A stretch of DNA of 64,000 nucleotides from Sphyrna mokarran (lineage: Eukaryota). Positions 7,261 to 8,168 of this stretch are shown one piece after another. A program made the translations under genes and the position numbers. The stretch covers positions 39,246,001-39,310,000 of the forward strand of contig JAGIQG010000016.1 of NCBI GenBank assembly GCA_024679065.1, written 5' to 3'. Each line of letters opens with the position of its first letter. The first letter of the stretch is position 1. The notes below the pieces were generated by a model, which searched no databases, was not told where the DNA came from, and saw only the letters and a list, made by a program, of their open reading frames with translations.

Positions 7261-7651
7261 TGTGGAGGCTAGTATAGAGTTTGCCTCAGTAGGGTTTCAA
7301 CGCACTGTAGGGCTTCAATGTTTCTTGTGTTGTCCATATTTGGGATCTTGGCATCACATTGGCTATAGAGCTAAGTGATGTCACAACATTGCTGAATCAG
7401 AGTCTTTTGATGTGAGCAGGAGTGCCTTATGTGTCTTTACCCTGGCAGAACATCACACAATCACACAGTAAGTGACTGGTAGTGTGTGGGAAACTGGTAG
7501 AGTGACATGAGGTATCCATAGTGCCACATGAGGCAATTTCTCACCCTAAATCTTTACATTGTAATATTTTTTCAAATCCTGACATAAGTACCTTATAAGA
7601 AATATCACAACACCAGATTAGAGTCCAACAGGTTTATTTGATAGTAAATGC

Positions 7652-7686
7652 CACAAGCTTTCAGAACGCTATTCCTTCGTCAGATG
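7652..7686 (-). ncRNA. Minimal type I hammerhead ribozyme motif, opposite polarity
   Basis: Reverse complement CAT-CTGACGA-A-GGAAT(AGC)GTTCT-GAAA-GC-TT-GTG. Confidence 0.75.
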
Positions 7687-7722
7687 AGTGGAGAGTTCTC
7701 CACTCACACAGAACTCTCCACT

Positions 7723-7757
7723 CACCTGACGAAGGAACAGTATTCCGAAAACTAGTG
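7723..7757 (+). ncRNA. Minimal type I hammerhead ribozyme motif (PLE-associated)
   Basis: CAC-CTGACGA-A-GGAA(CAGTA)TTCC-GAAA-AC-TA-GTG: conserved CUGANGA and GAAA core, helix II GGAA/TTCC, helix I CAC/GTG. Confidence 0.8.
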
Positions 7758-8168
7758 GCATTTGCTATCAAATAAAGCAATTGGACTTTAACCTGGTGTT
7801 GTGAGACTTCTTACTGTGTTTACCCCAGTCCAATGCCGGCATCTCTACATCATAAGTACCTTGGACATACTTTTAATGTACTCAAATAATGGAGACTGTA
7901 GCTATCCATTCTTTTCAGCATGCCAGAAAATAGAAGAAGTTTGATCACAATACCACAGCTGGAGGCATGATTTGTGCAGGAATGCTTTCCAAAGAAAAGT
8001 CTTTTGGGAAGCAGTTTATCAAATCCACTAATTTCTAACATTTTAACCAGAAAATAGTCTGTTCAGACAAGTATCAAATTAAACTTTATCATGCATATCA
8101 AGCAATACAGAGTAGAAGATTCTACCTGCACATTGACTAGTAACTCAGTTTGAATAAATAAATATTAA

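Follow-up and report, generated by a model that had tools for sequence, protein, structure and literature searches.

The 256-bp insert at 7595-7850 was left long ago by a shark Penelope-like retroelement (PLE) and is truncated at its 5' end; its palindromic form was very probably made at the moment of insertion instead of being copied as a palindromic unit. The same 3' end occurs five times in the 64-kb window (the whole stretch of DNA that was analysed), in copies here called A to E, and the insert is copy B.

The boundaries and the fold of copy B agree with a preliminary description made from the letters alone, which had proposed a 256-bp element within a 12-bp target-site duplication (TSD), inverted arms of about 100 bp, an extra hairpin at the axis and a long rod-like fold of a transcript from either strand. 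Within the 64 kb scanned, the TSD 12-mer occurs at 7583-7594 and 7851-7862 only, while an exact match of at least 12 nt between 30-nt windows lying 268 nt apart was found at 10 of 5,000 random window positions. The two arms (7596-7699 and 7710-7813) are 104 nt each and are complementary at 89 of 104 positions (86%, 15 mismatches) around a 10-nt loop; the axis hairpin at 7685-7706 exists because 7697-7707 exactly repeats 7715-7725, an 11-nt duplicate at the axis. The rod is supported by folding predictions, with a computed energy of -134.7 kcal/mol (z = -18.9) that none of 200 shuffles equalled in stability. As the 3' end of the family reaches approximately 7852-7853, the first 2-3 letters of the right TSD overlap the end of the element. 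An Rfam scan of copy B returned microRNA hairpin matches alone, all sub-threshold, and a microRNA identity was rejected as these were generic hairpin matches below gathering scores. The parts of copy B are as follows.

7583-7594: left TSD, 12 bp
7596-7699, minus strand: pLTR fragment in inverted orientation, without a tail and placed head-to-head to the second arm, its outer end at the tail boundary
7652-7686, minus strand: minimal type I hammerhead core that retains its conserved core letters but has a G10.1-U11.1 wobble and two more wobbles in stems I and II
7685-7706: axis hairpin, 10-bp stem and 2-nt loop, templated filler
7710-7850, plus strand: 5'-truncated pLTR fragment with hammerhead and tail, showing 81-85% identity with the 3' ends of the remaining copies in the window
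7723-7757, plus strand: minimal type I hammerhead core with A at position 15.2 (7751)
7814-7853, plus strand: Penelope 'tail' of about 35-40 nt, on the plus arm only
7851-7862: right TSD, 12 bp, its first 2-3 letters common to the element end

The same architecture had been said to recur three times in 64 kb. It does recur, and the count rises to four with the addition of copy A, such that fold-backs make up four of the five copies in the window. The other copies and their parts are these.

5474-6798: copy A, long fold-back with arms of about 650 nt and its axis inside the ORF
5474-6136, minus strand: copy A, tail arm
6137-6153: copy A, loop of 17 nt
6154-6798, plus strand: copy A, tail-less arm, coding for a broken RT-EN linker and GIY-YIG region
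25612-25844, minus strand: copy C, short fold-back with a 10-bp TSD and an 18-nt loop that has its own small hairpin
56250-56441, plus strand: copy D, short fold-back with an 11-bp TSD and a 7-nt loop
59830-60469, plus strand: copy E, plain 5'-truncated copy with endonuclease end, pLTR and tail

Copy A is bordered by a TSD-like match of 10/12 at 5459 and 6799, and its axis lies about 650 nt from the end, within the RT-EN linker. In B, C and D the tail is found on one arm only. Copy B alone among the window fold-backs keeps two recognisable cores: both cores of copy C are degenerate, altered at conserved positions, and the tail-arm hammerhead of copy D has gone through an internal deletion. For copy E we found no inverted arm and no clear TSD; directly upstream of it, at 59198-59828, lies a G-rich minisatellite of 38-40-nt units, which may mark or mask its 5' junction. 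The window contains unrelated types of repeats as well. A 484-codon open frame at 51845-53299 (minus strand) with an RVT_1 match (E 1e-34) is part of a LINE-type repeat, decayed related pieces of which lie at 12039-12886, 18752-19006 and 53484-53901, and dispersed repeats of about 300 nt, which we take to be SINE-like, occur in both orientations (9361-9661, 13737-14033, 34601-34909, 46254-46539 and 61677-62060, with inverse copies near 2118-2831 and 30739-31015).

The identity of the family comes from copies A and E, where a broken reading frame with RT and GIY-YIG relatives is joined to the same pLTR, and not from the stub that is copy B. A 64-residue read of copy A (with X at the stop) matched 17 of 18 candidate proteins at 73-84% identity, Mustelus asterias and Scyliorhinus torazame among their sources, and tblastn puts the matched shark proteins on copies A and E. 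Four of the matched proteins were scanned and carry RVT_1 and/or GIY-YIG, although the GIY-YIG and RVT_1 matches of P0008, and the GIY-YIG match of P0007, fall below the Pfam cut-off; a first homolog search with the window sequence had found one protein, and a Pfam scan of the window fragments alone gave no match. Since the pLTR of A and E is joined to relatives of RT and GIY-YIG proteins, the family is, judging from these sequence matches, probably an endonuclease-positive (EN+) Penelope-like element, for which we presume the clade name Penelope/Poseidon by likeness, and its host is probably a shark. Pattern scans for further copies gave no match in viral contigs or in a first metagenome scan, and four metagenome matches and one genome-contig match were dropped as 20-24-mers that matched by chance, with no homology in their flanks. 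The literature searched yielded no account of this shark family; Repbase/Dfam and subscription papers lay outside that search, and the supplements of bioRxiv 10.64898/2026.07.22.740005 may list shark families.

Sequencing runs add a view of the family beyond the window. Contigs of four of 24 runs (X1, X2, X8 and X24) were placed on 7681-7980, where X1 is the DNA run that best matches the stretch (0.80 of its words) and may be the source of the window itself, X2 and X8 come from other organisms, and X24, guessed to be RNA from another organism, has the family sequence while the flank of the copy B locus is absent from it. Among the 24 runs listed there is no RNA run that contains the copy B locus. 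In all four runs the family has two 3' ends about 35 nt apart, at approximately 7817 and 7852-7853, which delimit the Penelope tail; in X1 there are 756 loose ends with heterogeneous flanks behind 7817, and 1,156 and 2,289 behind 7852-7853. All depths given here are summed contig depths, not copy numbers, with some joints uncounted. Read in this way, the unique flank has a depth of 20.4 in X1 (single-copy) and the conserved 3' part of the family reaches 1.15 x 10^7, a peak of roughly 5.6 x 10^5 single-copy units.

General background supplies the numbering of hammerhead positions, as well as SINE, CR1/L2 and twin priming as labels. One hammerhead core per strand, at 7652-7686 (minus) and 7723-7757 (plus), is present where it had been placed, and the proposed origin from a PLE pLTR with minimal type I hammerheads is supported. 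Both cores carry an additional nucleotide after position 9, ahead of 10.1, helix I has 3 bp, and the cores lie 36 nt apart. Each has lost something that the family majority retains, namely the G10.1-C11.1 pair together with a palindromic 15.2-16.2. The plus core keeps the pair; position 7751 is A where 85% of the family depth (92,194/107,934) has G, and the helix-III palindrome needed for a dimer is thereby broken. The minus core keeps the palindrome and its pair is now G-U. No hammerhead match was returned by Rfam for copy B at E up to 10. In the folding model, forcing a hammerhead instead of the rod costs 39.6 kcal/mol (plus) and 54.6 kcal/mol (minus), and the prefix that ends at each core is predicted to be fully paired already, the head-to-head arms meaning that a transcript of either strand makes the complement of its core first. 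Read-through RNA of either strand is thus predicted to have its cores locked in the rod and to undergo no cleavage. Considering this lock together with published work, in which a single minimal core showed no cleavage and needed a same-strand partner (available text of PMC4209133) and the core of an anole element required protein (available text of PMC11167929), we predict that hammerhead activity is absent from copy B.

The central question is whether such a palindrome is remade at each insertion or is itself the replicating unit. The preliminary description leaned towards the latter, a distinct non-autonomous family that would be transcribed and re-inserted as a whole palindrome by way of its hammerheads, in the manner of retrozymes or viroid-like RNAs, and it had named unique axes as the mark of the former. 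As far as this comparison was taken, it points to the former. The loops of the four fold-backs measure 17 nt (A), 10 nt (B), 18 nt (C) and 7 nt (D), and all four axes differ, a comparison that rests on the five whole copies in the window and is not genome-wide; an axis common to many copies, as a family copied as a unit should have, was not what we found. The runs agree. In X1 the family depth falls from 106,119 at 7711-7720 to 150 at 7706, and the axis bins stand at 81-86 beside 106,119-148,487 on the adjoining hammerhead, which in summed contig depths corresponds to some 4 and some 6,500 single-copy units, respectively. The axis therefore has 0.06% of the adjoining depth in X1, with corresponding values of 0.04% in X2 and 0.006% in X8, and the other contigs that span the copy B axis, among those listed, differ from it by gaps of 1-4 nt. 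The depth curve is not usable as a truncation profile, as other subfamilies diverge over the hammerhead (with loose ends before 7769 and 7781) and copy B has no native sequence upstream of 7708 from which one could be read.

Several observations stand on the other side. Three short copies of similar size occur within 64 kb, and the axis depth amounts to 4-6 single-copy units in X1 and X2 instead of 1, which counts against a strictly private axis. Tail-to-tail joints, linking a tail-less end (7813-7819) with a tail end (7850-7853) on opposite strands, were seen in at least 43, 17, 6 and 2 contigs of X1, X2, X8 and X24, respectively, and hence in the DNA of three runs and in the one guessed to be RNA; they make up 9 of the 15 joint rows listed. 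This is the junction expected of a concatenated or circularised palindromic unit, but the joints fit a further round of priming or an insertion into a tail too, in X1 they account for roughly 1% of the tail ends listed, and they occur at no fewer than nine different position pairs and not at one. There is also a single X1 contig with a depth of 259.6 (about 13 single-copy units) that joins 7707 to 7813 on opposite strands and is perhaps a locally amplified, rearranged unit. Against whole-palindrome copying we set, besides the differing axes, the low axis depth and the indel variants, the predicted sequestration of the cores by 40-55 kcal/mol, the lack of monomer cleavage by minimal cores in the available text of PMC4209133, and the same-strand tandem organisation of non-LTR retrozymes as far as PMC7229834 and bioRxiv 10.64898/2026.07.22.740005 describe it. 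Taken together, these leave the idea of a palindrome-copying family unsupported and, in our judgement, very improbable, and the literature searched held no description of a unit-copied palindromic PLE.

If the palindrome was not copied, it could have been formed either during insertion or afterwards, whether because another element inserted into or next to the first or through fold-back repair at a later time. A later origin would draw on the ability of the endonuclease to cut its own pLTR (available text of PMC11167929), on the tail-to-tail joints, which show that composite insertions exist, and on the internal deletions in the tail arms of A and D. We consider it highly improbable, given that a single TSD encloses both arms in B, C and D with no second TSD, that the inner ends of the fold-backs lie symmetrically to within 7-18 nt, which holds for copy A as well, at a depth of 650 nt, and that each arm has its nearest neighbour in the other arm of its own copy. 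The latter is seen in the counts of differences, 15/91 between the arms of B and 9/89 between those of C, compared to 18-28 between copies (18-24 from B and 20-27 from C to the other copies). In a tree of the arms, from which the deleted tail arm of D was left out, the two C arms group at 93% bootstrap, and the C pair and C+D are the only supported groupings; the B arms group at weak bootstrap and have one column private to both.

Formation at insertion, which we prefer, would proceed along the following lines. The endonuclease of the element would nick both target strands 9-12 nt apart, and reverse transcription would start inside the RNA at two sites, the tail end and the tail boundary; it is at the first 3' end site, this tail boundary at approximately 7817, that the inverted arms of B, C and D end. 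In copy B the cDNA would stop near 7708-7710, about 15 nt upstream of the hammerhead, slip and re-copy 11 nt, after which it would snap back on a 3-nt microhomology and copy itself, with repair joining the ends and filling in the TSD. The two hammerheads would in that case be a single pLTR hammerhead copied twice. Snap-back self-priming is only slightly favoured over two cDNAs that run off one RNA end and are joined by microhomology, the product of which would look much the same. The loops offer a partial guide to the direction of folding. The loop of copy A reads as the native ORF of the tail-less arm, which implies that the tail-less arm folded back there, while the loop of copy D looks native to the tail arm; going by these loop sequences, the arm that folds back appears inconsistent, tail-less in A and apparently tailed in D. 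In copies A and D the internal deletion of the tail arm resumes about 20-27 nt inside the end point of the inverted arm. Such a pattern would be consistent with another primer having acted on the same RNA and may thus be a mark of twin priming on a single RNA, or it may reflect later decay.

A refinement compatible with formation at insertion concerns the template, which might have been a short RNA from a pLTR promoter just upstream of the hammerhead, copied in trans, with an arm of about 145 nt behaving much like a SINE and the palindrome remade at each insertion. We regard this as possible and yet rather doubtful. In three of the four fold-backs (B, C and D) the stop lies about 5-25 nt upstream of helix I, a tighter clustering than random truncation would suggest. 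In copy A a TATA-like run is found 32 nt upstream of this helix (minus strand, window 5590-5660), and the stops of the short copies fall between the place of this run and the hammerhead; the available part of PMC3846280 describes TATA and initiator-like motifs in pLTR promoters, and an internal start of reverse transcription, as in that of PMC11167929, means that no defined RNA 3' end is required. However, the clustering concerns three copies, copy E is without the TATA run, and A and E stop far upstream.

Several lines of evidence bear on the age of the insertion. In X2 and in X8 there is one contig that continues from the tail into the copy B flank, with 10/157 and 12/155 differences, respectively, and the insertion is therefore present in two further organisms, 6-8% diverged, and predates the split of these organisms. 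The 14% divergence between the arms is about twice that between the organisms, and 11 of the 15 arm mismatches are transitions, a pattern that we infer to be neutral decay from arms that would once have been identical. Presence in three organisms and a very stable hairpin could also be read as the sign of an insertion that the host has retained for its hairpin RNA, for instance as a source of small RNAs, but the excess of arm divergence over that between organisms, mostly in transitions as neutral decay predicts, and Rfam microRNA matches far below gathering scores make this extremely improbable. Copy B is likely inert today.

Each component of copy B has a precedent among Penelope elements, as far as the available parts of the cited papers go. 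Inverted pLTRs with a tail on one of them, TSDs of 8-10 bp and junction palindromes read as self-priming are reported in PMC3846280, where tail-to-tail is named as a rarer arrangement; an inverted 5'-truncated copy and a tail of 30-40 bp are called typical of PLEs in PMC8557442; and hammerhead pairs on opposite strands, 100-700 bp apart in Schistosoma mansoni, are attributed to truncated PLEs in PMC4209133. As the opposite-strand pair, the one-sided tail, the head-to-head copy and the junction palindrome have all been published for Penelope, copy B is an insertion of a known kind, and it belongs to the Penelope class that combines an inverted copy with a tail: the family has the ORF in A and E and a hammerhead pLTR, and the insertion has the head-to-head inverted copy, the one-sided tail and a short TSD. 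Complex EN+ PLE insertions (PMC3846280, PMC8557442) resemble it in the head-to-head inverted pLTR, the one-arm tail, the junction hairpin and a TSD of 9-12 bp; copy B differs in being very short (about 145 nt per arm, with no ORF) and in belonging to a shark family with a very large number of copies. With the minimal metazoan PLE hammerheads of PMC4209133 it has in common the extra base after position 9, the short helix I and the opposite-strand pair, and the family majority has their palindromic 15.2-16.2, whereas in contrast to the Schistosoma mansoni pairs its cores are just 36 nt apart, both decayed, with a helix I of 3 bp. Poseidon PAc of Anolis carolinensis (PMC11167929), for which two RT start sites and extension on both strands in vitro are described, is alike in having a hammerhead near the pLTR end and two 3' end sites that define the tail, but was studied there as tandem direct repeats, and the available text gives no explanation of an inverted arm like that of copy B. 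The 'shark' of PMC6155905 is, in its available text, the namesake of the hammerhead motif.

The likeness to retrozymes is one of content. Metazoan non-LTR retrozymes, in the available text of PMC7229834 and bioRxiv 10.64898/2026.07.22.740005, are likewise short, non-coding, related to PLE pLTRs and hammerhead-bearing, but they are same-strand tandem repeats that give circular RNAs, whereas copy B consists of one inverted pair, bounded by a TSD and having an axis that is near-private. A retrozyme has at least two same-strand hammerheads head-to-tail, and copy B has one core per strand in a single unit between TSDs; in place of a canonical type I hammerhead with tertiary loops it has a 3-bp helix I and no Rfam match. 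The analogy to retrozymes fails on architecture, and that to viroid-like RNAs appears to do so, with cores of opposite polarity, each preceded by its own complement, where a minimal core needs a same-strand partner (available text of PMC4209133).

Taken as a single locus, copy B matters little, being an example of a known PLE insertion pattern. Fold-back hairpins of this origin can be miscalled as microRNA precursors, MITEs or viroid-like RNAs. There is a small chance that a minority of palindromic Penelope stubs is recopied whole through concatemeric or circular intermediates, copy B being a dead, near-private one; if true, whole-unit recopying would give rise to a family akin to retrozymes, carrying hammerheads in both polarities, of which the tail-to-tail joints and the 13-fold-deep contig would be traces. 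The shark family as a whole offers many-copy material on how PLEs form inverted arms and one-sided tails, a mechanism that the available text of PMC8557442 calls undefined.
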